Source: a virus
Lineage: Duplodnaviria > Heunggongvirae > Uroviricota > Caudoviricetes
Direction: 5' to 3' (one strand)
DNA length: 64,000 bases
IMG/VR virus record: IMGVR_UViG_2713896899_000007
Span: 7,041 to 71,040 of that record
This document shows, in pieces, positions 3,996 through 43,447 of this stretch; position 1 is the first letter of the stretch; every line of letters begins with the position of its first letter. The position numbers and the translations under genes were made by a program. The notes below the pieces were generated by a model. That model worked only from the letters and a program-made list of their open reading frames with translations. It was not told the DNA's origin and did not search any database.

Positions 3996-6900
3996 TTAGT
4001 TACGTTGAGTGTTTGGGTTGAGTGATCCGCCAGGGCGTTTTTCTTGAGCGATAGTCTCAAGTACGACGGCTTTCACCCGTTTAGCAGCATTGTTCCATAT
4101 GCTTTCTGTATCGCCGGATTCTGTCGTGCTACCGTCACTATGGACGTTGATCTCAATTGATACAGGAGAAAGAACATTTCCGCCTCCACTCATACCATCG
4201 GTACTGAGCGTTACAGGGATTGTTCGGCCATCAGGCAATGGAACATACGCCTCATTCATAGAACCTTCCCCAAACAACGCTAATTGAGGTGAGTTAGCAA
4301 TACCGCCTTTCTGGTATGCCCGGAGCGGGATCACGCCGTCTTTTCCGAATATTCCTCCATTTGCAAACTTCGGGATTGCAGGAATGCCTTTAGTTCCGTC
4401 AGCCACACTGCTAGTTGCGGTTTTAGCAGAGCTTGATGTCACACTGTCGAAACCACCACCTGCCCATACTGAAACCAACCCAGATGCAACTGTCGCGCCG
4501 AAATTCAACCACTTATTACCAGAGCCGGAAGCATTAGCTCCAAGCATTGCAAACGCGGCAGACAGAGCACCGGTAACAGAGCTGAGGTTCTGCATCGAGA
4601 AGATGGAATCCTTCACTGCTTTTGTCTCAGCATCTTTGGCTTCGGTGCTATCAAATAGCCCTGATACCCAGCTACCAATCGCATTTGTTGCTGTGCCAAT
4701 TGCGCTGGTGGTCTGCTGTGTCGTTTGCCCCAATCCAGTTACCGAACTGGACGTCTCCTTCGTGGCTTCTCCTACCGACTTGTCGCCGTTAACAGTGTTG
4801 CCCATTCGTACCCCTTGATTGGCAACGGCGGAAGCAACCCCGGTCAGCAAATTACCACTCTGTGAACTACCAGCTGCGGTGGTTCCCATCCCCAACATGT
4901 TCATTAGAGGCAGCGTGATCTGCGACTTCACGACCATATTGGTGATATCTTTCAAAATGGACTGAGACAGGCTGGAGAAGCTCATCTTCCCGTTAATAAC
5001 GAAATCAGTCAGGACATCAGTTAAGCCACTAAACAAATCAGTCCAGGTGCTTTCGATCTGCTCTGCCAGGTTTTCGTATTCCAGTGCCAACTTCTGCGTC
5101 GCAGTCCCCGTCTCTTTAATAAGCGCGGTATTGCCAGCAGCAATAAGTTGATTGATTTTCTTTGTATAAAGCGCCACGACTTTAGGATCAGACGCCTTAT
5201 CACGAAGTTCTATCAACGCTTTGAGATTGCGGTTGTAGGTGTCTTCGAAATCAGCAACTTTCTCTTCACGAGACGGCGTATAGCCAGCACTAATAATGGA
5301 ATCCGCCTCCGGTGCCCAAGTGGAGATCATCTGCTCAACATTGCGGCGATTAAACATCTCGCGATATTCAGGTGTCGCATTTTTGAGGTCCTCAAGACGT
5401 TTTTTCGCCTTGTCGATCATCTCTTGAGTGATGAACTCGTTAGGAACCGCATTAGCCAAATCTGTCAGCGATTTCGTTGTATCGCGAAGAGACTGATCAA
5501 ACGATACCGTAGCCTTAGAGCTTTCACCCATTTGCCCCATAAGCTGATCGGCTTTGTCCAGAGCCTTCTGGTATCCGGCTGCCAGTTTCTGTTGCGCTGC
5601 CTGTTCCTTCTTGGCCGCACGCTGCGAGGCGTTAGCTGATCGTTGGGCTGCTTTCTCGGCAGCTGCTGCATCCTGTTCACGAGCTTTAGTCAGTGCAGCA
5701 ATGGCTGCGGCACGCTCTTCATCGCTCATTTTCTCCAGAGAGCTGGCACTGGATGCTTTCTGCAAATTAAGCTGCGTCTTGAGTTGTTTAGGCCCAATAA
5801 TCGGCTTACCTTCGAAGTCCATCATCGGAGTGCCGTCAGGCAAAGTACGTTGATAAGTCGCAGAATCCATCTGGTTTCGCATATATTGCGCCAGCGCCTT
5901 CTGAGCTGCTTTATCAGTTGTACCTAACCCCAGAACAGTCCCCTGGTTTGACATTACGCCCTTACCAGTTTTGGCAGCGTTATCTCTCTCGAACTCTGCC
6001 TGAGTCAGTTCCTGAGCGACGACTTCCAAATTCTCCTGATAACCACGAATACTGCCTTGCAGTTTCTTGATCTGCTCGGTGTTTCCTTCCTTTTTCGCTT
6101 TTTCAAGCTGATCATTAAGAGTGGCTATTTGCCCCTCGACAGCATTCTTACGAGAAGAAAGTGAATCAACCAGTTTTTGCGCAGGCTCCAGATAGCTTTT
6201 GTTTACCGTTTCACGTAACGGTGCCAATAGTTTGTTCTTTTCGTCATCAGAAAGTGAATCGTCATCATTGATTTTTTGGATCTTCTCCAGAGCCTCTTGA
6301 CGAGCTTTAGCGAATGTTGCCGCAAAGTCTCTATTCTCTTCCCGTATTTTCTCTATCTGTGATTCTGCCGCATCTTTTGCAAGACGTTTGGCTACAGCAA
6401 TGTCTCCGCGTTCAATTGCCCCAGTAGTTTTATCGCGTTTCTTACGAAGGTCATTTAGCTCATTTTCTATACGCTTACGTTCATCCTGATTAATCTTTAC
6501 TGTAGTTCCGGCCATACCCGGCCCATAAACCACCTTTTCGCCAGATTTTAACTCTTGTTCCTTTTGCGTGATTTGTTGCTCAAGACGCGCTTTATACTCC
6601 GCCATCTGTGCACGTTTGGCCGCTGTCATCGCCTCTGGTATTTTCCTAATCTCGTCAACGACCTTTGAAGTTTCGCTGCGGAGCATGGTCATGTACGTGA
6701 TTAGGCCAGCAACAGCTACAGTGGCAACTGTAAATGCTGCCCCTATAGGGTTTGCTGCAATGAACGCCGTTAATCCAGCAAAAGCGCCTTTAAGCCCCGT
6801 AATCGCCCCACGGATGGCGAAAATAAGAGAGGGGATCGGAGCCAGCCCCATACGTGCCGCACGATTGAATCGAGTTACTGCTGTAGCGCCGAGGTTAAAT

Positions 6901-22443: not shown

Positions 22444-24003
22444 ATGACTGTTCGGATTGTATCTAACGCAGTTAATGCGCTTATTTCTGGCGCAGATGAC
22501 AAGGTAAAGCAACTGGTGCAGCAAATGTTGAGCTACGAAGTCGAGACTGGCGACTGGAAGGGCACAAGCACGATGTTCAACTGGAGTAAAAACTCGTTCC
22601 CTGCTGGCTTTGCCAAGCCTGTAGCGGCGAACTTGAACAAGGCGGGCATCAAATGTGTTCATATCCGCAAAGACAAAGCCCCGGCGCTTGGTAAACCAAA
22701 TCCGGCGGTTAACCCATTCCCATACAATCCTGATTATGCGTATCAGGATCAGACTGTGGAAACACTGGTTCGAGAGGGAATGATGATTGCGCAGATCGCT
22801 ACTGGTGGCGGGAAATCTAACGTTGCCTGCAAAGCAGCTGCACGTATCGGTCGAATGACATTATTTTTAACAACCCGCTCTGTTCTGATGTTTCAAATGG
22901 CCGAAAACTTCCAGAGATCCATCGACTACCGCGCCGAAAATGGCGAACCGTGGTTAAAAGACCAAAAGGTTGGAGTCATTGGCTCGGGTGAGTTCCAGGT
23001 ATCACGACATATCAACGTCGCTACAGTTCAAACTCTTGCAAGTTTCCTCGAAGAACCACCACGCGATGCAACACCAGATAAGAAAAGCTACCACCTCAAA
23101 CGTCGGGAGTTGGTGAAACGCTTCCTTTCAAGTGTCTCTCTTCTTATTCTGGAAGAGGCGCATGAGTCTTCAGGCTCAAATTTCTATGACATCGCCAGAT
23201 TATGTGTGAACGCAGACTATCGTCTGGCGCTTACAGCCACGCCGTTCATGAAGGATTCGACGGAAGCCAACATGCGCCTGATGGCGGTGGCCGGGCGAAT
23301 TGAAATTAAAGTCACAGAAAAGTACCTGATTGATCGAGGCATTCTGGCAAAGCCGTACTTCCTTTATCATAAAGTTGCCTACAAACCAGACGAGGCCAGA
23401 ATCAAGGCAGAACTTGCCAACAAACACCTCAATTTTAGAGTAGGTATGAGTACTGCCTACCAAAAGGCTTATCAGTTGGGGATCGTGTATAATTTGGGAC
23501 GTAACGAGGCCATTGTTCGCGAAGCATTGCTCTATAAGCAACATTCTCTCAATTGTATGACTCTGGTTCGCCTTAAACGCCACGGGCAAATCCTGATGGA
23601 AATGATGAAAGAGTCCGGCCTTAGAGTTGACTTCATCTATGGGGAATCTAACCAGGCGACAAGGCAAGCAAAGCTGAACAGTTTAGCGTCTGGAGAAATA
23701 GATGTTTTAATAGGCTCGACTATTCTGGATGTCGGTGTTGATGTGCCAAGCGTTGGTGCGGTCATTCTTGCTGGTGGTGGGAAAGCAGAAGTTGAAATGA
23801 GGCAGCGTGTCGGTCGTGGCTTACGAGCCAAGAAGAATCAGGCAAACGTGTGTTTTATCACTGATTTCATTGACACTAGCAACAAATACCTGTTGTCTCA
23901 CTCTTATGAGCGAAAACACATCATCGACACCACACCTGGCTTTGCAGAAGGTGTATTGCCTATTGATGGCGCATTCGATTTTGGAGTTCTGAAACGAGAT
24001 TAG
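22444..24003 (+). CDS. SF2 DEAD/DEAH-box helicase
   Basis: Motif I ATGGGKS, motif II LILEEAHE, motif III LTATP, motif VI QRVGRGLR. AAGGAAAGAGG RBS. Confidence 0.85.
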   Translation: MTVRIVSNAVNALISGADDKVKQLVQQMLSYEVETGDWKGTSTMFNWSKNSFPAGFAKPVAANLNKAGIKCVHIRKDKAPALGKPNPAVNPFPYNPDYAYQDQTVETLVREGMMIAQIATGGGKSNVACKAAARIGRMTLFLTTRSVLMFQMAENFQRSIDYRAENGEPWLKDQKVGVIGSGEFQVSRHINVATVQTLASFLEEPPRDATPDKKSYHLKRRELVKRFLSSVSLLILEEAHESSGSNFYDIARLCVNADYRLALTATPFMKDSTEANMRLMAVAGRIEIKVTEKYLIDRGILAKPYFLYHKVAYKPDEARIKAELANKHLNFRVGMSTAYQKAYQLGIVYNLGRNEAIVREALLYKQHSLNCMTLVRLKRHGQILMEMMKESGLRVDFIYGESNQATRQAKLNSLASGEIDVLIGSTILDVGVDVPSVGAVILAGGGKAEVEMRQRVGRGLRAKKNQANVCFITDFIDTSNKYLLSHSYERKHIIDTTPGFAEGVLPIDGAFDFGVLKRD

Positions 24004-24005
24004 TT

Positions 24006-24284
24006 ATGAGCGAAAAGAAAACAACTTATTGCCAAGTGGCATTGTCTGATAAGGCCAATGAAAAACTTGGAAAATTTCAAATAAAACTCAAAGAGAAAAA
24101 AATCAAGATGTCTAAGGCTGAAGTTATCAATGCCATTCTGGAGACGATGACTATGGCTGAATTTGACAAAGTCACATCTGCCGTTGGGGTTTCCGCTAAG
24201 ACGCGTGAGAAAATCATGCGCATCTATGAAAACTCCAATATGACAAAAAAAGATCTAGAGGAAATACTGAGCAGGTTGCCGTAA
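24006..24284 (+). CDS. small hypothetical protein (possible ribbon-helix-helix)
   Basis: 92 aa. Starts 2 nt after the helicase stop. KMSKAEVINAILE resembles an RHH helix. AT-rich. Confidence 0.4.
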   Translation: MSEKKTTYCQVALSDKANEKLGKFQIKLKEKKIKMSKAEVINAILETMTMAEFDKVTSAVGVSAKTREKIMRIYENSNMTKKDLEEILSRLP

Positions 24285-24349
24285 CATTTCATATTTACCC
24301 CCTATCAACTAATTCTATGATGTGCTCACTTGTTAGAAAGGAGCACATC

Positions 24350-24916
24350 ATGAGTTGGTTAAAAGAATTATCATTTGTTGACACCACTGGCGCTAAGAAA
24401 AATCATTCTTTCTGGAAAGTCAGCGATCCTTCTGATTTTCTTGTTGGTGCTAATGCTGCTTTTGAATTGCTTAACTTTTATCAACGTTATCCTGAAATGA
24501 AACACAGTCCACTCCTGTACAGAATAACAAACGATATGAATAGGTCTGGTTTATTATCAAGTGAGTCAGCGAAAGGCTTTTTTAGCAAAATTACGCCACA
24601 CATATCATTCGATGCAGCAAACGAAATTGATTGTCTATCCACGAAACCTCAAGAACAATTATCTGTACCACCTGAGAAAAAACAAAGACGAATTGCCAGC
24701 ATTGAAAATATATCGAAAGAGCTTCGCACAACAACGTTGAGGCTGCTGAACTTTCTTACGCTACTTAATTGGATAGATGATCAAACATTGATTCCATCAA
24801 CCGATGCGTTGGATAACAGAGTACTTAGGCTGAACAAAAAATCGCAATTTGGTTTTGTGTTCACCAAAAAAGGTGAAGATTTAATCAAAAGAAAATATAG
24901 ATTATTGAATGATTAA
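24350..24916 (+). CDS. hypothetical protein
   Basis: ATG 24350 has an AGGAG RBS. Followed by hairpin acatgcaggtg...cacctgcatgt. No recognisable domain. Confidence 0.55.
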   Translation: MSWLKELSFVDTTGAKKNHSFWKVSDPSDFLVGANAAFELLNFYQRYPEMKHSPLLYRITNDMNRSGLLSSESAKGFFSKITPHISFDAANEIDCLSTKPQEQLSVPPEKKQRRIASIENISKELRTTTLRLLNFLTLLNWIDDQTLIPSTDALDNRVLRLNKKSQFGFVFTKKGEDLIKRKYRLLND

Positions 24917-25061
24917 TAGTCTACATGCAGGTGTATGAGAGCACCTGCATGTGATATTCATCACATTTTTTGAAGTACACACCTCCGGCTGAAAAAATTT
25001 CTTGATTGGCAGAACGATATTTGTAGGCTTTTCAATTGATAACTAAGGTCGGATACTGTAG

Positions 25062-25550
25062 ATGAGTATTTCCATAAACAAAATAATTAACTCTTTACGA
25101 CATAAAATATCACATGGAAAAGATGTTCTTTTTAAAGACAAATATTATCTATTCAACCTAGAGTTGTACAAATGCACAAAATTTTATATCACTCGGAACC
25201 GTAAATATTCAGCTTCAATCACAAAAGACATGAAGAAAATCTCTTCAGAAGAGTACTTCATATCACATATTTATATCTACCCATTTAAATTAGAACCATT
25301 AAATATAATTCTTCCAACAATAAAAGGGGTTGAACTTGAAGGTTATACTTTAAGCTCTAACTTTAATGATATGGGTGTACAAAAACCAGGGACAAGGTCA
25401 TACTACGCCTACAAAGTAAAATGCAATAACTACAACGCACTTAACATGCTAATCAGCAAACTTGAAACGGAGATAGTCGAAGGAAATCTAAATGATGATC
25501 ATGAAAAATTAGAACAAATAGAAAAACTTAGAAAGTGTGATGTTAAATAA
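25062..25550 (+). CDS. hypothetical protein (Lys/Asn/Ile/Tyr-rich)
   Basis: 162 aa ORF, first gene of a 3-gene AT-rich operon. Confidence 0.5.
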   Translation: MSISINKIINSLRHKISHGKDVLFKDKYYLFNLELYKCTKFYITRNRKYSASITKDMKKISSEEYFISHIYIYPFKLEPLNIILPTIKGVELEGYTLSSNFNDMGVQKPGTRSYYAYKVKCNNYNALNMLISKLETEIVEGNLNDDHEKLEQIEKLRKCDVK

Positions 25551-25565
25551 TTGGATTATCATGAT

Positions 25566-26165
25566 ATGAAAATGAAAATTTCGTTACTCCTTGCTTGTAT
25601 ATGCCTCCCGGCGTTTTCCGCCAACGCATTATCAGATTTCGTCTCTGACATGCAAAAAACGTACAGCATGTTTACCTCCGAAGACGTAGTAGAATACAAA
25701 TCACGAGGTCTGAATCAGCCAGTTTGGTTCAGATTCTCAGACAACGCAGAAGAAACAATACTTAATGGAGGAAAAGAAAGATTACGGTTGCAAATTAACG
25801 GGACCGCTGTACCAGAAAACGTTAATGTAAACTCTGACGAAGCCATGAAGCCATCTGGAATTGTTTTAGAAGTTCAAGACGGCACACTTTACTGTGATGA
25901 AATGGCTACAACAGGTTGCCAAGTAAACATTAGGGTTGGCAATGAAGAGCCTATCGTTACTTACGCCAAGGCTGAAGGGAATACAAGTGGAAAGGTATTG
26001 TTTATCGATGAAAATATCTCAAAACGTATCGTTCGTGACATACAGAAAACAGCTAACTCTAAATCCGTCGATAAAAAAATCTATGTTGAGGTTCCCTTCT
26101 TTGTCGTTGGTAACAAAGAATTTAAATTTGGGTTGCTGAAAACACCTCTAAGAGTATCAGAATGA
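25566..26165 (+). CDS. secreted/periplasmic hypothetical protein
   Basis: The N-terminus MKMKISLLLACICLPAFSANA looks like a Sec signal peptide. ATG 25566 is preferred over TTG 25551. Confidence 0.6.
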   Translation: MKMKISLLLACICLPAFSANALSDFVSDMQKTYSMFTSEDVVEYKSRGLNQPVWFRFSDNAEETILNGGKERLRLQINGTAVPENVNVNSDEAMKPSGIVLEVQDGTLYCDEMATTGCQVNIRVGNEEPIVTYAKAEGNTSGKVLFIDENISKRIVRDIQKTANSKSVDKKIYVEVPFFVVGNKEFKFGLLKTPLRVSE

Positions 26166-26686
26166 GAACATTGGACATCACCTACGGCATACCGGCTGAA
26201 GTCTGGCCGCGAGACTACGAACATGCTGAAAACATACTTATGTTCTGGCGGAAGAACAACATTCCTGTAAGAGTCACGCTTGAAGACGGTCAGGTGTTTT
26301 GCATGTACGTTCAGGGGACAATGCCTTCCCGCAATAAGCTAGATTTATGCCCGCTTCCATATGATAAAGAAAATCGTATAAGACTCCCACTTGAGCGCAT
26401 TAGCACAATTGAATCAGGTGTAATCGATGGCATTGCTCGCGAGTTCAAAGGTAGGCTAACAATACATCCAGACTATGTTGACAATCAGCCATCACGCCGT
26501 GACTTTTTTGCGATATGTCGCAAGGCTTATCAAAACGACCAATCTATAAGGGTCTACATGGCAGACGGTCGTGAAATTGAAGGGGTGTCAAGAGGCGTTG
26601 ATGCTTGCCAGGTCACTCTTAAGTTAGAAGACGGCAGAAAAATACTTGTTTTCTTCGATTGGGTTGAACGAATCCTTCCATTTTAA
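26162..26686 (+). CDS. hypothetical protein with two Sm/LSm-like repeats (pattern level only)
   Basis: ATGA overlap with the upstream gene. VRVTLEDGQVF..YVQG and IRVYMADGREIEGVSRGVDACQVTLKLEDGRKILVFFDWVERI fit the Sm-fold pattern V.V.L.dG..i.G...g.D...l.L. Confidence 0.5.
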   Translation: MRTLDITYGIPAEVWPRDYEHAENILMFWRKNNIPVRVTLEDGQVFCMYVQGTMPSRNKLDLCPLPYDKENRIRLPLERISTIESGVIDGIAREFKGRLTIHPDYVDNQPSRRDFFAICRKAYQNDQSIRVYMADGREIEGVSRGVDACQVTLKLEDGRKILVFFDWVERILPF

Positions 26687-26697
26687 ATCTATAAGGG

Positions 26698-26728
26698 TAA
26701 TAACCGGCTAAGCCCGGTTATTATTTTA
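26698..26728 (+). terminator. rho-independent terminator
   Basis: gtaataaccgg / ccggttattat stem followed by a T-run. Confidence 0.75.
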
Positions 26729-26878
26729 CATGCCATTCATTTAAAACTCTTTCAATGCCACTCTGTATAAATATATAAGGTTAAAGGCCCGAATTGATTA
26801 TTTATTTAGGGAACACCTTCGACGATCTCGCTTTTATTTCTAGGACTTTCACCCCTGCAAAAAATTTAAAAAAAACAC

Positions 26879-26906
26879 TTGCAATCTTTTTTCACGTATC
26901 GATAAT
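26879..26906 (+). promoter_or_regulatory. sigma70-type promoter (TTGCAA-16 nt-GATAAT)
   Basis: Read directly from the sequence. About 70 nt upstream of the 26982 start, in an AT-rich gap. Confidence 0.55.
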
Positions 26907-26981
26907 TGAACTCGTCGAAAGCGAGCTGGCTAACGACAGTAAAAAATAAATTCATTTTAATTTTTCGTAAGGATGTCCATC

Positions 26982-27632
26982 ATGGCTAACATTATCATTT
27001 CTAAAAAATCCATCATTGAAGCTGCTTCCATTGTATCCGATGAACTGCGCGAAAAAGCAGATCTGGCAACTCAAACATATAACGAACATTATAAAAATGG
27101 TACGCACACTAAAGCAGACAAAGCAAATATGCAAGCTGCGACCACTAAACTTGCTTACTTCATCAACAACGTCGTAAACGCAGTAGAAGACGAAAAATTA
27201 TGCTCTGTTTTCTACTATGCGATTAAAGCAAGCAAACAAGCGCCAGAAGTATTTTTCCGTGATGCTATGACTAATAGTTATTCACTGGAAAAACTGGTTT
27301 ATCTGGTTAAATCCATTAAAGCTGGTAAATGCGTTTATTCCGTCGCTGATATGTCAGGATCTCGTGTATTCGCTTTAATCGATATGATTAACGACGAGAT
27401 CGACACGTTCACCAATGGCGCTGTTTTCGATTTAATGAATGAAGCTAAAAAAGCGTGCGAAATTAAATTGGACGCTGGCTATACTCAAGCCAACCAGTTG
27501 ATCAATCTTTGCGAACGTCTCGGACTTGTTGAAAAAGTCAAAGGAGCTGGGAGCGCCAAAGCTGGTACGCAGCAATATCGCTTCATTAAAAATGATTTCT
27601 ACAATTATTTAGCTGATGCTTTTAAAGCGTAA
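26982..27632 (+). CDS. hypothetical protein (possible C-terminal winged helix)
   Basis: ATG 26982 lies 8 nt after AAGGA. 216 aa. YTQANQLINLCERLGLVEKVKG is HTH-like. Confidence 0.55.
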   Translation: MANIIISKKSIIEAASIVSDELREKADLATQTYNEHYKNGTHTKADKANMQAATTKLAYFINNVVNAVEDEKLCSVFYYAIKASKQAPEVFFRDAMTNSYSLEKLVYLVKSIKAGKCVYSVADMSGSRVFALIDMINDEIDTFTNGAVFDLMNEAKKACEIKLDAGYTQANQLINLCERLGLVEKVKGAGSAKAGTQQYRFIKNDFYNYLADAFKA

Positions 27633-27681
27633 TTAATGAAATCAAGCGCCCACTATGGGCGCTTTAAAGGAGCTTTCAAAA

Positions 27682-27885
27682 ATGGTCAGCTATGACAAGA
27701 TCCGCGCGGAATATCGCGCAAAGTATCGCGCTTATAAACTGGAATTAATCGACGATTTGATCGCGCAACGCGACCAATTAAATTTTACGTTTTCTGATTT
27801 GCTTAACAGTAAACGAGATTGTAAGCGTAAGCGTGAATATTTACGTTTAAGCGCATTAATCGGAAAACTTCAAAATTCTATTTAA
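27682..27885 (+). CDS. small basic coiled-coil hypothetical protein
   Basis: ATG 27682 follows an AAGGAG RBS. The track start at 27655 lies inside a hairpin. Confidence 0.45.
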   Translation: MVSYDKIRAEYRAKYRAYKLELIDDLIAQRDQLNFTFSDLLNSKRDCKRKREYLRLSALIGKLQNSI

Positions 27886-27905
27886 TTTTTTTAAGGAGCT
27901 TAATC

Positions 27906-28133
27906 ATGGTTATTTTCATCTCTGGCGTAAATATCAATAATCATACTCTTGTTTATGATATTGCTGGTTTAGCTGGATATGCTCTAAGTTCTGAAGTGGT
28001 TGATGAAACAACGTTTAAAATAAACATCAATGACGTAGAACATAGAGCGCGCGTAGGAATCAATGAAGCTGATGTTACTTTAATGCTTCAAGAATTTTTA
28101 AACGCTGGCTTTAATATTCACTTAGAAAAATAA
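27906..28133 (+). CDS. small hypothetical protein
   Basis: 75 aa, AAGGAG RBS, followed by a strong terminator. Confidence 0.5.
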   Translation: MVIFISGVNINNHTLVYDIAGLAGYALSSEVVDETTFKININDVEHRARVGINEADVTLMLQEFLNAGFNIHLEK

Positions 28134-28165: not shown

Positions 28166-28625
28166 GTTTACAATACACCCACCATAACGCGCCAATAATG
28201 GCGCTTTTTTATTGTCTTTAACTCACTCCAACAACATAAAAATAAGCGCCAAAATAACGCCATAGACGCGCTTTTATATCCTTGTCAGTACATACCCATT
28301 ACTTAACACATTAACGCGCTTAAAATGCGTTATATTGCGCTATAACGTATGGCTAATCATTAATTTTTATTCTTGCTATGTGATCCGCGTTTAATTGTCG
28401 GCGCGGATCGGCATTTTGTTTTGTTCCGTATCCGCTCGCGTATTATGTGCGCGTGATTTTTCACATAATCACACCACTTAATCACGTATGTGATTATGCT
28501 ACGAAAGAAATCTGGATGTCTCAGGCGACGAAAGTCATCATAATTTTCCCCGCTCACCTGTCCGACAACCGCTGGTTGGATTCCACCAGCTTCCCGATGT
28601 TTTTTCTACATAAAGGCGAATGCAG

Positions 28626-28738
28626 CCGTTTCCCGAAAAAATCCTGGCCGTTTCCCGTCGGCTCATGAATGCGTTCCTTGCCGTTTCTGAAAATTTCCCT
28701 GCGGCAGCTGGTGGCTATAGAGAAAGGGCCGTTTCTGG
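28626..28738 (+). repeat. iteron cluster A (CCGTTTCCCGAAAA-type)
   Basis: Copies at 28626, 28648 (22 bp apart) and 28681. A further copy at 28729 lies inside a hairpin. Confidence 0.6.
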
Positions 28739-29287: not shown

Positions 29288-29438
29288 TTGTACGAATAAG
29301 GCGTCAAAGTGGAAAGTTGCGGTAGCCGGACGGGAACAGGTGGGTTTGTCGGTTGCCTGGAGGTAAGAGGTTGGTGTTTTTAGCCTGCGGGGAACAGGAT
29401 GGTCATTTAAGGCCACCAGCGTTAACTGGTGGCGTTTG

Positions 29439-31238: not shown

Positions 31239-31568
31239 TTACGCGAATACTTCAAGAAACTCCTGAACGTCCCAATGCTGGACAAGGTGAAGATAGACCT
31301 TAGAAATCACGTCATTCTCGCTATCGCATGTGAAGTAGTACTTCTGGCTGCGGTTGTATGTGTCCACACAAAATTCGCTCATATCCATAAAGTCAGCATC
31401 TTCTCCCATGTCGCAAATCATCAAAGCAGGTGCGTCATCACGAGTCATCAGCTCAAGCACCCACCGCGAATTGATCAGAGTGGAAGACCAACCTTCCAGC
31501 TCACAGAACTGGTCAAACTCTTTTTGAGTCAATTTCTTAATTTGGTTGATGTCGATATGTGCAAACAT
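31239..31568 (-). CDS. hypothetical acidic protein
   Basis: ATG 31568 has a TAAGGA RBS. ATG 31589 lies inside the promoter motif. Confidence 0.55.
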   Translation of the reverse strand: MFAHIDINQIKKLTQKEFDQFCELEGWSSTLINSRWVLELMTRDDAPALMICDMGEDADFMDMSEFCVDTYNRSQKYYFTCDSENDVISKVYLHLVQHWDVQEFLEVFA

Positions 31569-31578
31569 AAAGCAATCC

Positions 31579-31614
31579 TTAAACAACATGTTTTCTTATT
31601 GGTGTTATTATCGC
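31579..31614 (-). promoter_or_regulatory. conserved early promoter/leader element
   Basis: Minus strand reads GCGATAATAACACCAATAAGAAAACATGTTGTTTAA. Confidence 0.55.
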
Positions 31615-31928
31615 AATAACGCACAGGCGAAAAAGGATTTTATTCCGGTGAATGTGGTTTTGGCAGTGAGTTTTCAGGTTCAGTACCGAGTACACTTTTT
31701 ACATTATTCTGATTTAGTGGCCGAAGATGGCTGGTGGGCAGAATAATCCTCTCCCCGAAAACCTACTGAAATCGATTGTGACCCGCTGGCTGTCTGGCAC
31801 AATTACGCTGTAGCTGGGCATTCAGAGGGAATCCAGCGGTAAGTTCGCCTGCACGTGAGCGCCTCTCTTCTTACCGCACATTACAGGTGGGTAGCCGCAA
31901 CTCTCCCTCACGCTATACCGGTACGCCA

Positions 31929-32060
31929 CCGTTCCTGAACCGGCATCGAGCCTTTTCCCGAAATCCACACAGGCAACTCTACCGTTTCCCTGAAAATCCC
32001 CAGCCGTTCCCCGAAGGCAACCCAGCCGTTTCTGTAGCGGGATGCAGCCTTTCCCTGTAT
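31929..32060 (+). repeat. iteron cluster B, six copies phased at 22 bp
   Basis: Copy starts at 31929, 31951, 31982, 32004, 32026 and 32048. Consensus is cAGCCGTTTCCCtGAAAA. Confidence 0.75.
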
Positions 32061-32119
32061 GGACCGAAGGCTGACCGTAGGGGTGTTACGGGGGATAAAA
32101 TCAGGAGTTGAATAAATAC

Positions 32120-32990
32120 GAAAAAGGAGGCGACACCCCTACTTCCCTCTCCACTTATACATACCAGGCTTCTTCGCTATACATGTTGTGTTTTCTTCGT
32201 GTTTTATCTGTCTCAACCTCTCTATAGGCGTTAATGCTCACTCCTACCAGAACGTTCTATACGGCGACTATTTCTGTTGGTGGATTAGGTGTGTTGTTTT
32301 CTCTGTCGGTGTATGTGGTTTCGTTCGTTTTGCGGTGGTTCTTCTATGGGGTGTTCTCGTCGTTTTGGTGATTGTTCTTCTCCGTATATGGAGTAATGGC
32401 AGGTGGGCGATTGCTTTCGTTATTGTGTTTGAGTTGTTTGTCTGGAGTGTGTGAAAGGCTTTTGTAGTTATTCGTGTATTGGGTAATGGCGTTTCCCGTG
32501 ATTGTTATGTTTCGTGTCTTTTGGGATTGAGAGAAACCTTGCGGTTACAGGCTTCGTTGGGGTTTCAGTGATTCTGGTGTTTCTTCGCTGTTTGGGGAAT
32601 GGCGTGTCGTGGGTATCGCGCGTGTGAATGTTTTCGGATTGCCTGTGAAAGTTAGGTTGGTTATCCGGTAGCCTGGGAAGAAGAGGTGGGTCTTTTCGGT
32701 AGCCTGCCATAAAGAGGTTGGTTGTTTTTGGGAATGGCATGTGTGTTATTTAGTTGTTTTGTTATGCCTGAAAATAAGTTGTTTATATGGTTGTGTAACG
32801 CAACGGGAGCGATTTTGAGCGTGTGTTTTTGTTGGTAGTGTGTTGAGTCGTCTGTGGTGAAAATTGGACGCTGTGGAGCTGTCTGCTGCGTAGGATTACG
32901 GGTATAAGAAGTGATGTGTGAAAACGTCAATTTTTTAGACCAAATCGGGAGAAAGCGTTGATGTTTCGTTGATCTGTTATTTAGTTGTTT
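32120..32990 (-). ncRNA. candidate long C+A-rich untranslated transcript (hypothetical)
   Basis: A family promoter at 32974-33006 points into a stretch with no credible ORF. The plus strand is 72-85% G+T in the three 60-nt lines I counted. The ends are not defined. Confidence 0.25.
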
Positions 32991-33006
32991 TCTTATTGGT
33001 ATAAAC
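32974..33006 (-). promoter_or_regulatory. conserved early promoter/leader element with no downstream ORF
   Basis: Minus strand reads GTTTATACCAATAAGAAAACAACTAAATAACAG. A partial second copy lies at 32745-32765. Confidence 0.5.
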
Positions 33007-33136
33007 AACTGTAACCTATTGATATTTAAGGATGTGATTGCAGGCATGGAAGGGGAGTAGTGGCGATCAACGGATTCTTATAGAAAAGAATCAAATTGTG
33101 ACCGCCATTATCAACGGTTTGAATATGTTTGCAGAT

Positions 33137-33436
33137 TTACCAGTTCCAGCACTCAAGCCCTTCAACGACCGGCGCACCACAATCAAAATGTACAGAGTCA
33201 AAGCCTACATCAAGTACTTTCTGAATGTTAGCAATCGCGCCTTCGGATATACCATATCGACGCAAGTCGTCTTTCCAGACATCATCCTGTAACCCGGCGT
33301 GGACAATACAACCGCCATCAATTTGTGAAACCCAATCCAGCTCATTGCTTGCGATCATGAATCGGCGAGCATCTTCCTCTGATGTATGAGATGAACTGAT
33401 CAATGCCACCTGGTAGGCTTGGGTAATGTTCAACAT
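33137..33436 (-). CDS. DUF5983-like small protein (recollection of plasmid/prophage family)
   Basis: The ALISSSHTSEED...VHFDCGAPVVEGLECWNW pattern (ISTSH...HFD....L.G...W end) fits the family as I recall it. ATG 33436 has a GGAG RBS. Confidence 0.55.
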   Translation of the reverse strand: MLNITQAYQVALISSSHTSEEDARRFMIASNELDWVSQIDGGCIVHAGLQDDVWKDDLRRYGISEGAIANIQKVLDVGFDSVHFDCGAPVVEGLECWNW

Positions 33437-33447
33437 TTCAACCACTC

Positions 33448-43328: not shown

Positions 43329-43447
43329 TCTTAACTCCGTTGTTTTCTAGTTGTGGTTATTTTCACAAATAAGAAAAGGTAGAAAACAATTTATTTAAGG
43401 CCACAACTTATGGCCTTTATTTATTCATGCAGAAGAATTTGTAGCGT

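Follow-up and report, generated by a model that had tools for sequence, protein, structure and literature searches.

What does a gene-free block of 1.5 kb do in the genome of a phage-plasmid? The question is raised by positions 31590–33136 of the window (the 64,000-nucleotide stretch of DNA analysed here), which are non-coding; no other conserved non-coding block of the element, an SSU5/pHCM2-like phage-plasmid of E. coli, is as large. Phage-plasmids of this type carry resistance genes and occur commonly in clinical E. coli, Klebsiella, Salmonella and Enterobacter. The block is unannotated, and a literature search found neither a published account of it nor a published lytic origin for these elements. 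The genes around it are all transcribed leftward, with an upstream block encoding MetRS, an HD protein and DUF5983 together with inserted cassettes expressed in the lysogen, and with repressor-controlled early genes to the left of its skewed tract. We read the locus as the central part of a composite control region that most likely acts in cis (approximately 31730–33121) and is made up of a rightward promoter, iterons, a dyad, a strand-skewed tract with 26-bp repeats, ~30-bp repeats, an operator palindrome and leftward promoter-like elements. Judging from the sequence, this region may most likely be a transcription-gated origin for lytic replication with the tract as a Rho-sensitive, hairpin-free leader, although we put this forward tentatively and at less than an even chance.

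The core of the region, 32250–32900, is 72% G+T on the plus strand (T 0.41, G 0.33, A 0.14, C 0.12), a departure of over 10 sd from what other parts of the window show; the top 830-bp segment has 70.5% G+T against 49.3 ± 2.0% (maximum 54.9%) in the remainder, and the GC skew of +0.305 and AT skew of −0.347 over 32001–33000 are unique within the window. A first-pass annotation had counted 51, 43 and 47 G+T per 60 in the lines 32281–32460, which our recount reproduces exactly, and had described a strand-skewed region of 1.4 kb, which holds for the core but not for 31620–32250, where there is no skew. A leftward RNA would be C+A-rich and G-poor as that annotation expected (C/G 2.7; 2.69 over 650 nt), with a C-over-G excess of 0.222 versus 0.072 for the next best elsewhere in the window. 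The seven weakest-folding 300-nt segments of the entire minus strand all lie within 32201–32801, at −26 to −38 kcal/mol versus −82 ± 12 for the strand, and this weak folding is repeated in SSU5, Klebsiella, Cronobacter and other relatives. Only the leftward RNA sense is unstructured; rightward tract RNA folds normally.

In a database search the skewed tract was matched by 835 plasmid records and 12 phages, and tract and skew persist without exception in the 45 relatives examined, which span E. coli, Salmonella SSU5, Enterobacter, Citrobacter, Cronobacter, Klebsiella and Kluyvera and have a G+T content of 0.63–0.74. We note that the tract-bearing phage-plasmid family is widespread in gut bacteria. 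When species-representative genomes were scanned with the best-conserved motif of the tract to look for it beyond phage-plasmids, the only hits were one MAG contig and a phage-plasmid contig from Kluyvera. Within the tract 31% of alignment columns are invariant, skew is equally strong in the repeats and in the spacers that separate them, and substitutions keep the keto bias, with 58 G<->T columns versus one A<->C column; the substitutions and the skewed spacers together suggest selection on strand composition.

That no credible open reading frame is present, as previously proposed, holds up: in six genera PGAP leaves the interval between the flanking genes without annotation, and a hidden gene is ruled out by substitution phase, indel lengths and ORF turnover. 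Variable columns show no three-base periodicity (159/158/159 by phase in the tract, 96/87/93 in the left part), 84 indels are not multiples of three versus 69 that are, with one-base indels frequent, and the longest ORFs differ from relative to relative. The two coding sequences called inside the tract of phage Cyrano, CYRAN_103 and CYRAN_104, appear to be artefacts of composition, given the scarcity of stop codons in C+A-rich sequence. Nor is there a recognisable structured RNA, with no Rfam match at gathering score in the window and none at E<=1 in 31500–33250, no excess of structure over shuffles (z = −0.94 on the minus strand, +2.39 on the plus strand), and no covariation across the region, which the first-pass annotation had named together with conservation as a check; conservation itself was found.

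Transcription of the locus can be gauged from published RNA-seq of a Cyrano lysogen in LB. The gene upstream of the region is expressed (log2 6–9) and the signal then drops to the floor over the right end, with an FPKM of 0 over CYRAN_103 (32657–33013), so that there is no abundant RNA from there in lysogeny; CYRAN_104 has low but non-zero reads. The earlier suggestion of a giant rut-like tract stands as regards composition, since RNA that is C-rich, G-poor and unstructured has the textbook rut composition and the tract is also non-coding. It is conceivable, if on balance unlikely, that the tract serves simply as a terminator or insulator dependent on Rho, which would load on untranslated leftward read-through from the upstream block and halt it before the early genes, with the flanking repeats as unrelated regulatory sites. 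The extreme and strand-specific composition and lack of structure, seen in leftward RNA only, the leftward orientation of all neighbouring genes and the Cyrano expression drop are consistent with this. However, that drop precedes entry into the tract, and thus something further right already terminates; known rut sites span roughly 60–100 nt, whereas the tract has 650 nt with strongly conserved 26-bp repeats; an intrinsic terminator would be far cheaper; and YC dimers are no more frequent than the composition predicts.

A long, unstructured, A/C-rich RNA is also what would be predicted of a trans-acting sponge for Hfq, for the FljA/Sm-like protein, for CsrA or for another RNA-binding protein, and a CrcZ-like sponge for Hfq or the Sm-like protein had been proposed; the element's FljA-like gene does have a weak Hfq-fold match. 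We regard such a role as very improbable. The motifs (ARN)x3, (ARN)x4, AAYAA and ANGGA (for the GGA motifs of CsrA, 1–4 per tract) are no commoner than in mononucleotide shuffles in five diverse relatives (the window element, SSU5, Cronobacter, Klebsiella and L042), the lysogen is silent over the right end, and no Rfam family matches even at the permissive cutoff. Moreover, the FljA-like gene (26162–26686) is missing from most tract-bearing elements, being found in 92 Escherichia/Shigella plasmids only versus the 835 tract records.

Table 1. Features of the composite region and of the related second site (window coordinates).
Feature	Position	Strand	Basis or remark
Chi site GCTGGTGG	31730..31737	+	Left edge; conserved in most relatives
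Sigma-70-like rightward promoter, TTGTGA-N16-TGgCACAAT	31776..31805	+	Hexamers and spacing kept, spacer sequence variable
Six iterons, core (A)GCCGTTYCCC(T)GAAA	31929..32060	+	C-rich on + strand
Dyad block: GGGG..GGGGG, ~35-bp A/T-rich core, CCCC..CCC, conserved CTTATAC	32075..32165		Repeats/alignment
Skewed tract, C+A-rich in leftward RNA sense	32250..32900	-	Composition
26-bp repeat TTCTCCGTRTATGGAGTAATGGC, copy 1	32372..32400	+	Repeat search
Three ~30-bp repeats, TAGCCTG-N-AGGTKGGT	32639..32727	+	Repeat search
Operator-type palindrome and weak leftward promoter-like hexamers	32745..32810	-	AAAACAAnTTGTTT in most relatives, degenerate in window
Leftward promoter-like element, TTGACG-N18-TATACC	32902..32931	-	Hexamers at least 90% conserved in 28 relatives, spacer variable
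Two CGTTGAT motifs and partial family promoter/operator copy	32956..33015	-	Profile search
Variable spacer	33005..33060		Insertion point of a gene cassette
Conserved block after stop codon of gene 33137..33445	33060..33121	-	Alignment, motif scan
Second iteron cluster, four copies	28583..28715	+	Flanked by inverted Chi sites
Second ~30-bp repeat cluster, three copies	29323..29403	+	Just upstream of true family promoter

The features of the region are collected in Table 1. In the left part, 20 of 28 diverse relatives have the rightward promoter at one and the same alignment column, and in SSU5/Enterobacter-type relatives an 80-aa plus-strand gene takes its place. This conservation of hexamers and spacing with a variable spacer, the plus-strand gene at the promoter position and the low reads over CYRAN_104 are all in line with a functional transcript running rightward, which would be G+U-rich and C-poor, would not load Rho, and might act on the leftward early genes as an antisense or interfering RNA, perhaps with the aid of the ops-like element CGGTAGCCTG that each full 31-bp unit carries on the plus strand, opposite to all neighbouring genes. 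We nonetheless consider it improbable, because there are zero reads in LB over 32657–33013, such an RNA would first cross the C-rich iterons (C/G 2.07), which are rut-like themselves, and there is no plus-strand target gene nearby. The full RfaH ops element GGCGGTAGnnTG is absent, the shorter form matching 10 of 12 positions without the first two G's, and two such matches are not above chance (28 of 100 shuffles). Finally, the RNA:DNA hybrid of the rightward transcript is unfavourable, being less stable than the duplex (+0.044), because the rightward RNA is U-rich; an R-loop from a rightward G-rich transcript was rejected on the same figure.

The energies of the opposite strand are quite different. 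Nearest-neighbour tables of RNA:DNA minus DNA:DNA energies predict that leftward RNA over 31900–32060 ranks first among 63,840 windows, at −0.168 kcal/mol per step for the iteron segment versus −0.023 ± 0.046 for the window as a whole, and among six relatives the minimum of the locus falls at that same place in five and next to it in one. The six iterons start 22, 31, 22, 22 and 22 bp apart, each with a small internal dyad TTTC-N-GAAA, and the strand skew changes sign at the dyad block. RNAalifold finds no covariation in that block (consensus −3.5 kcal/mol, one of 11 pairs compensatory). An apparent compensatory change in the inverted repeat 32077/32133 failed across 12 relatives, and a candidate intrinsic terminator on the minus strand (32140..32125) is a weak hairpin that is not conserved.

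At the right end, the first-pass annotation had placed a canonical early promoter at 32974–33006 driving the region. Profile search reduces this to a partial copy of 14.5 bits (E 0.0015) at model positions 28–60 of 77, compared with 39–53 bits for the seven true family members. Neither the GATAAT −10 nor the second operator half is present, no gene start follows, and the whole 77-position profile (TTTnnnGCC, GATAAT, CCAATAAGAAAACAAnnTTGTTT) is not matched there; the claim that a full family promoter drives the region is not sustained. A simple scan found no leftward promoter at consensus, the candidates being partial or near-consensus; the element at 32902..32931, for example, lacks the T at position −7, except in L057 (TATACT). 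Antisense complementarity to the early leaders, another candidate, was unsupported by the family-promoter profile search. In Cyrano and roughly a third of the E. coli relatives the variable spacer is interrupted by CYRAN_102, a gene cassette of 760 bp. The conserved block beyond it has an IHF consensus site, a pair of inverted CGTTGAT motifs and a hairpin with better pairing in minus-strand RNA. The right edge of the region is where copies of CGTTGAT and IHF consensus sites concentrate.

Between these ends lie the repeats. Further copies of the 26-bp repeat end at 32490, 32604 and 32738, and relatives have three to six; the four copies of GCCATT(A/C)C(C/T)C reported previously correspond to three exact matches (32391, 32481 and 32594) and one with a mismatch (32729), all on the minus strand. 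The idea that these repeats are degenerate family promoters was dropped, as the profile search did not detect them. The 31-bp tandem pair (32666–32696 and 32697–32727) is confirmed at 77% identity and has a degenerate third unit at 32639; the number of ~30-bp repeats varies, with an extra 31-bp unit in L014 and L030. Elsewhere in the 110-kb element, iterons and ~30-bp repeats are found only at the second clusters listed in Table 1, the iteron clusters being 3.3 kb apart, and this two-site layout is conserved in order and spacing in E. coli, Cronobacter, Kluyvera and L042. The tract shows no similarity to the gene at the equivalent position of the other site (site 1), of which it might have been a decayed copy.

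This anatomy suggests the possibility of an untranscribed array of protein-binding sites, whose nucleoprotein complex would set the expression or silencing of the early genes and bridge the two sites, the skew being a by-product of G+T-rich motifs in the same orientation. The existence of three repeat families, phased helically at 22 and ~31 bp and varying in copy number, the restriction of two of them to two sites whose arrangement is conserved across genera, the position of the site 1 ~30-bp repeats directly upstream of a true family promoter, and the motifs at the right edge all argue for it. Against it, the spacers are as skewed as the repeats, the 58 to one ratio of substitution columns concerns strand composition, for which double-stranded sites have no need of selection, and no binding protein was found for any repeat family; we think this reading, too, is rather unlikely.

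Our preferred interpretation, an origin for lytic replication, would operate as follows. In the lysogen, the prophage repressor bound to operator-type palindromes would shut the leftward promoter-like elements at 32.8–33.0 kb, and upon induction an untranslated transcript would run leftward across 32900–32250. Its C+A-rich, G-poor composition would leave the RNA without structure and without ribosomes, making sparse or leaky transcripts ideal substrates for Rho, which would abort them, while dense transcription would get through to the dyad (32075–32165) and the six iterons (31929–32060). There the purine-rich RNA would form the most stable RNA:DNA hybrid of the window, opening the duplex for the element's gp32-like SSB, DnaB-like helicase, primase, DnaE and RNase HI, and the unwound tract could form hairpins on neither its G+T strand nor its C+A strand.

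Several observations favour this interpretation. A cis-acting replication role near iterons, as the first-pass annotation had speculated, is plausible because iterons lie inside the region: six direct repeats phased at ~22 bp are followed by an A/T-rich core in a G/C dyad, as in iteron origins, and the predicted hybrid-favouring segment downstream of a putative promoter, conserved in relatives, is as in R-loop origins. The promoter-like hexamers are invariant and their spacers variable, the element encodes a replisome and RNase HI but no recognisable lytic initiator, and the silence of the region in the lysogen is as expected for a lytic function. The plasmid replicon is a Rep_3 RepA with GTATGCTGTCAGCGGT iterons, which differ in sequence and lie outside the window; to that extent the earlier idea of a replication element next to the iterons is not supported. 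A full-size plasmid has IS1 inserted inside the tract and IS truncations cut the tract region in three further relatives, which shows that the tract is dispensable for plasmid maintenance. Also in its favour count the persistence of the non-coding block and its skew in all relatives, the second iteron cluster 3.3 kb off, the varying number of ~30-bp repeats, and the extreme lack of structure and C-over-G excess of the leftward RNA.

Other observations weigh on the opposite side. No leftward promoter-like element comes up to consensus, there are no DnaA boxes in the region, and GC3 skew along co-oriented genes of the 110-kb element gives no signal of an origin-type switch. Among the element's scanned proteins no lytic initiator is recognisable, the Rep_3 RepA being the sole recognisable initiator, and Pfam, PHROGs, NCBIfam and PDB sequence searches of the neighbouring ORFs gave nothing informative. 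Rho would be expected to stop the leader RNA before the iterons, and the model thus needs an anti-termination step or a threshold effect. Motif conservation in the tract exceeds the need of a composition-only role, and the conserved rightward promoter has no role in the model.

In a more specific version, to which we give little credence, the tract would be a dedicated, family-wide 'Rho gate', a 650-nt untranslated leader selected for C-richness and lack of structure, at which host Rho would decide whether transcription reaches an R-loop-forming iteron origin. If this is true, the firing of lytic replication would be coupled to promoter strength, host Rho and translation status; to our knowledge, such a principle of origin control has not been described for phages or plasmids. 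Were the region the lytic origin or its gate, those who study induction and copy-number bursts, or want to block them, would have a defined target in it, and if it is only a Rho trap, it would still be an unusually large and conserved one and usable as a directional insulator.

The locus can be compared with several known systems. With the sponge RNAs CrcZ/CrcY and CsrB it shares a predicted long non-coding RNA with repeated short motifs; unlike them, it has no enrichment of their defining motifs, no lysogen expression and no terminator-bounded structured body. As in the rut sites of lambda tR1 and trp t', the predicted RNA is C-rich, G-poor, unstructured and untranslated, but the tract, as a putative rut site, is about ten times longer and has conserved repeats. 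The iterons resemble those of ori-lambda, P4 ori/crr and R6K in comprising 4–6 phased repeats with internal dyads beside a palindrome and an A/T-rich segment; that the repeats recur as a second cluster a few kb off is reminiscent of split iteron origins, and a possible dependence on nearby transcription, suggested by anatomy, would be a further likeness to iteron origins. Their sequence is unrelated to that of ori-lambda, P4 and R6K, and the putative origin is not inside an initiator gene; in contrast to ori-lambda and P4, no O- or alpha-like initiator was found, and the skewed tract has no counterpart there. The R-loop origins, ColE1 RNA II and T4 oriF(uvsY)/oriG(34), differ in having no sequence similarity to the region, in mostly lacking iterons and in lacking a 650-nt structure-free C+A leader, and nothing here is comparable to the structured RNA II, the hybrid being predicted from nearest-neighbour energies alone. 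Like them, however, the region has a putative promoter some hundreds of bases before the predicted hybrid point and a predicted G-rich RNA segment beside an easily opened A/T-rich core, and the element itself supplies RNase HI, a gp32-like SSB, helicase and primase.

The region matches NZ_CP048306.1, an E. coli plasmid of 110 kb, at 99%; for phage Cyrano and other SSU5-like phage-plasmids the figure is 91–97%. The closest record is annotated with a siphovirus structural module and an extensive early region whose products include DnaE, a DnaB-like helicase, primase-like proteins, ligase, RNase HI, NrdAB, MetRS and tRNAs, with nearly all genes on the minus strand; further products are a gp32-like SSB and a type Ib ParA, and the plasmid replicon, a Rep_3 RepA surrounded by at least 15 GTATGCTGTCAGCGGT iterons, lies outside the window. 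A low-GC (35–39%) + strand cargo island at 24000–28100 contains a FljA-like gene (26162–26686, +; PF03614, E 5e-81) with a weak Hfq-fold match. A second long ORF-free stretch of the same element, outside the window (sequence L013, 21744–23611), carries four tRNA genes (Ser, Thr, Tyr and Asn) and is unskewed.

The first-pass annotation described a strongly strand-skewed region at 31620–33040; the skew holds for about 32250–32900 (the tract) only, the left third being unskewed and C-rich on the + strand. Its three G+T counts are exact on recount and its 31-bp tandem pair is present as described, as are three of its four copies of a shorter motif, the fourth having one mismatch. The 830-bp window richest in G+T reaches 70.5%, against 49.3 ± 2.0% elsewhere (maximum 54.9%), and the 1-kb skew values are unique within the window. 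The comparison with relatives that the annotation had proposed shows the G+T bias kept in 45 of 45 (63–74%). Among 26 diverse sequences, 203 of 650 tract columns are invariant, and 58 two-state columns exchange G and T as against one exchanging A and C; changes thus tend to keep the keto bias. A sensitive search recovers 835 plasmids and 12 phages that have the tract, SSU5 itself among them (Klebsiella 427, Escherichia 224, Enterobacter 90, Salmonella 49, Citrobacter 25), and while small flanking genes vary between relatives the non-coding block is retained. That a strand-asymmetric composition has been kept over such divergence implies an intermediate in single-stranded form, be it RNA or unwound DNA. 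A MAG contig labelled Bacillota (L062, JAEWTL010000044.1, 6697–6719) also matches the most conserved tract motif exactly; it is probably a mis-binned contig of an enterobacterial phage-plasmid.

The absence of a credible ORF is borne out by an alignment of 45 homologous regions, reduced to 28 representatives at <97% identity (52–95% identical to the window). Variable columns fall evenly across the three phases (159/158/159), with no 3-base periodicity, one-base indels are the commonest indel class, and the longest ORFs are not the same between relatives. Automated annotation leaves a 1.4–1.9 kb gap here in E. coli, Enterobacter, Citrobacter, Cronobacter and Klebsiella, and the region is not a gene. 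On the minus strand T and G, needed for stop codons, are scarce, which is what produces long ORFs in that sense.

Features of the non-coding region, left to right on the + strand
Feature	Position	Strand or direction	Remarks
Chi site	31730	+	
Promoter-like element TTGTGA-N16-TGgCACAAT	31776–31805	rightward (+)	hexamers and spacing conserved, 20/28 relatives
Six iterons	31929–32060		22-bp phasing
Dyad: G-cluster/A+T-rich/C-cluster	32075–32165		skew sign switches here
Repeat TTCTCCGTRTATGGAGTAATGGC	inside skewed tract		three to six copies
Three ~30-bp repeats	32639–32727		copy number differs between close relatives
Operator-type palindrome	32745–32810		
TTGACG-N18-TATACC element	32931..32902	leftward (-)	hexamers invariant
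Two CGTTGAT motifs and partial family promoter copy	right of TTGACG element		
Variable spot	33005–33060		inserted gene in relatives
Conserved block	right of variable spot		two inverted CGTTGAT motifs, IHF consensus site

Elsewhere in the 110-kb element, iterons and ~30-bp repeats recur at a single locus (28583–28715 and 29323–29403), in the same order, orientation and ~700 bp spacing, and this two-site layout is conserved across genera; the gene within the second interval shows no similarity to the tract. A pure protein-binding array would account for the repeats, leaving the skewed spacers unexplained, and we regard it as rather unlikely. The rightward promoter-like element, whose spacer sequence changes between relatives, aims into the iterons with no ORF after it in the window, and its place is taken by an 80-aa + strand gene in SSU5-type relatives. 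A rightward antisense RNA would make use of this best-conserved promoter; having neither supporting reads nor a target, it is improbable.

The core of the 31-bp repeats, CGGTAGCCTG (32666–32675 and 32697–32706, +), agrees with the RfaH ops element at 10 of 12 positions; the neighbouring genes are on the other strand. The window has 17 copies of Chi (GCTGGTGG), distributed over both strands, where 1.5 would be expected (for example at 28583(-), 28707(+), 29413(-) and 31730(+)); one inverted pair brackets the iterons of the second locus, and another copy lies within a terminator stem. The variable spot, seen at 4500–5400 in the related sequence L001, has inverted CGTTGAT pairs and IHF consensus sites on its flanks; a 760-bp insert is present there in Cyrano and in roughly a third of the E. 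coli relatives, and its coiled-coil gene is expressed in the lysogen.

A canonical early promoter had been placed over the region at 32974–33006. The motif family is real, with eight copies, all leftward, against 0.02 expected by chance. Seven of the eight (+ strand coordinates 29255, 31098, 31582, 33451, 46293, 47007 and 57956) lie 10–25 nt ahead of the start codon of a small gene and share a -35-like TTTnnnGCC, a GATAAT -10 and, just downstream of it, the palindromic AAACAAnnTTGTTT, which resembles a repressor operator; together they look like a candidate regulon of one repressor, comparable to the many C1 operators of phage P1. A weaker match lies at 43339–43388. The copy over the region (33015..32983) is partial, scoring 14.5 bits against the profile of the seven in the middle of the model only, and it has no gene after it; it is thus a relic or a half-operator, not a canonical promoter.

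In published RNA-seq of LF82 (Cyrano), CYRAN_103 (window 32657–33013) is near the floor in all ten samples, with a log2(FPKM+5) of 2.32, or FPKM 0, in both LB replicates, whereas the gene upstream reaches 6–9 (the early gene downstream is at 7.8). The region's right end is therefore silent in lysogens, read-through having already halted to its right. A plain Rho insulator would explain the composition, but not this earlier termination, nor the size and repeats; we regard it, too, as rather unlikely. The full-size 111.6-kb plasmid NZ_CP083480.1 (L060) carries IS1 (1168–1935) in the middle of the tract, with a target duplication at 32356–32364, and IS elements truncate the region in three more relatives (L010, L014 and L022). 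The plasmid can thus replicate and be maintained without the region, as would fit a function in the phage cycle.

No Rfam match to the region was found, neither strand folds better than shuffles, and the dyad block, examined for the covariation that the first-pass annotation had suggested seeking, has none. Of all 300-nt windows on the minus strand, the seven that fold most weakly are in the tract (-26 to -38 kcal/mol; strand as a whole -82 ± 12), and the C-over-G excess of the leftward RNA is three times that of the next best window; the rightward RNA folds normally because of G-U pairs. By the nearest-neighbour tables in Biopython, the tract itself neither favours nor disfavours RNA:DNA hybrids, and the iteron segment, just downstream for the leftward RNA, is predicted to be the most hybrid-favouring of 63,840 160-nt windows (-0.168 against -0.023 ± 0.046 kcal/mol per step). 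Weak folding and the hybrid minimum are found at the corresponding places in SSU5, Klebsiella, another E. coli type and the related sequence L042, and in Cronobacter the minimum is adjacent. A CrcZ-like sponge for Hfq or the Sm-like protein, as once proposed, is very improbable: Hfq, CsrA and CA-motif counts are no different from shuffles, lysogen expression fails to support it, and the FljA/Sm-like gene is confined to 92 Escherichia/Shigella plasmids, a much smaller number than have the tract.

Our tentative reading is that the region may be a lytic origin gated by leftward transcription, since it has iterons, an A+T-rich dyad and a second iteron cluster, the element apparently lacks a separate lytic origin, and it encodes its own replisome with RNase HI. 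Leftward transcription would gate the origin, and the tract would act as a structure-free, Rho-sensitive leader. There is a modest chance that this represents a new control principle. The searched literature yielded no description of the region and no counterpart for the combination together with the size and conservation of the tract; taken one by one, its components resemble known kinds, namely an iteron origin, a rut site and an R-loop origin.
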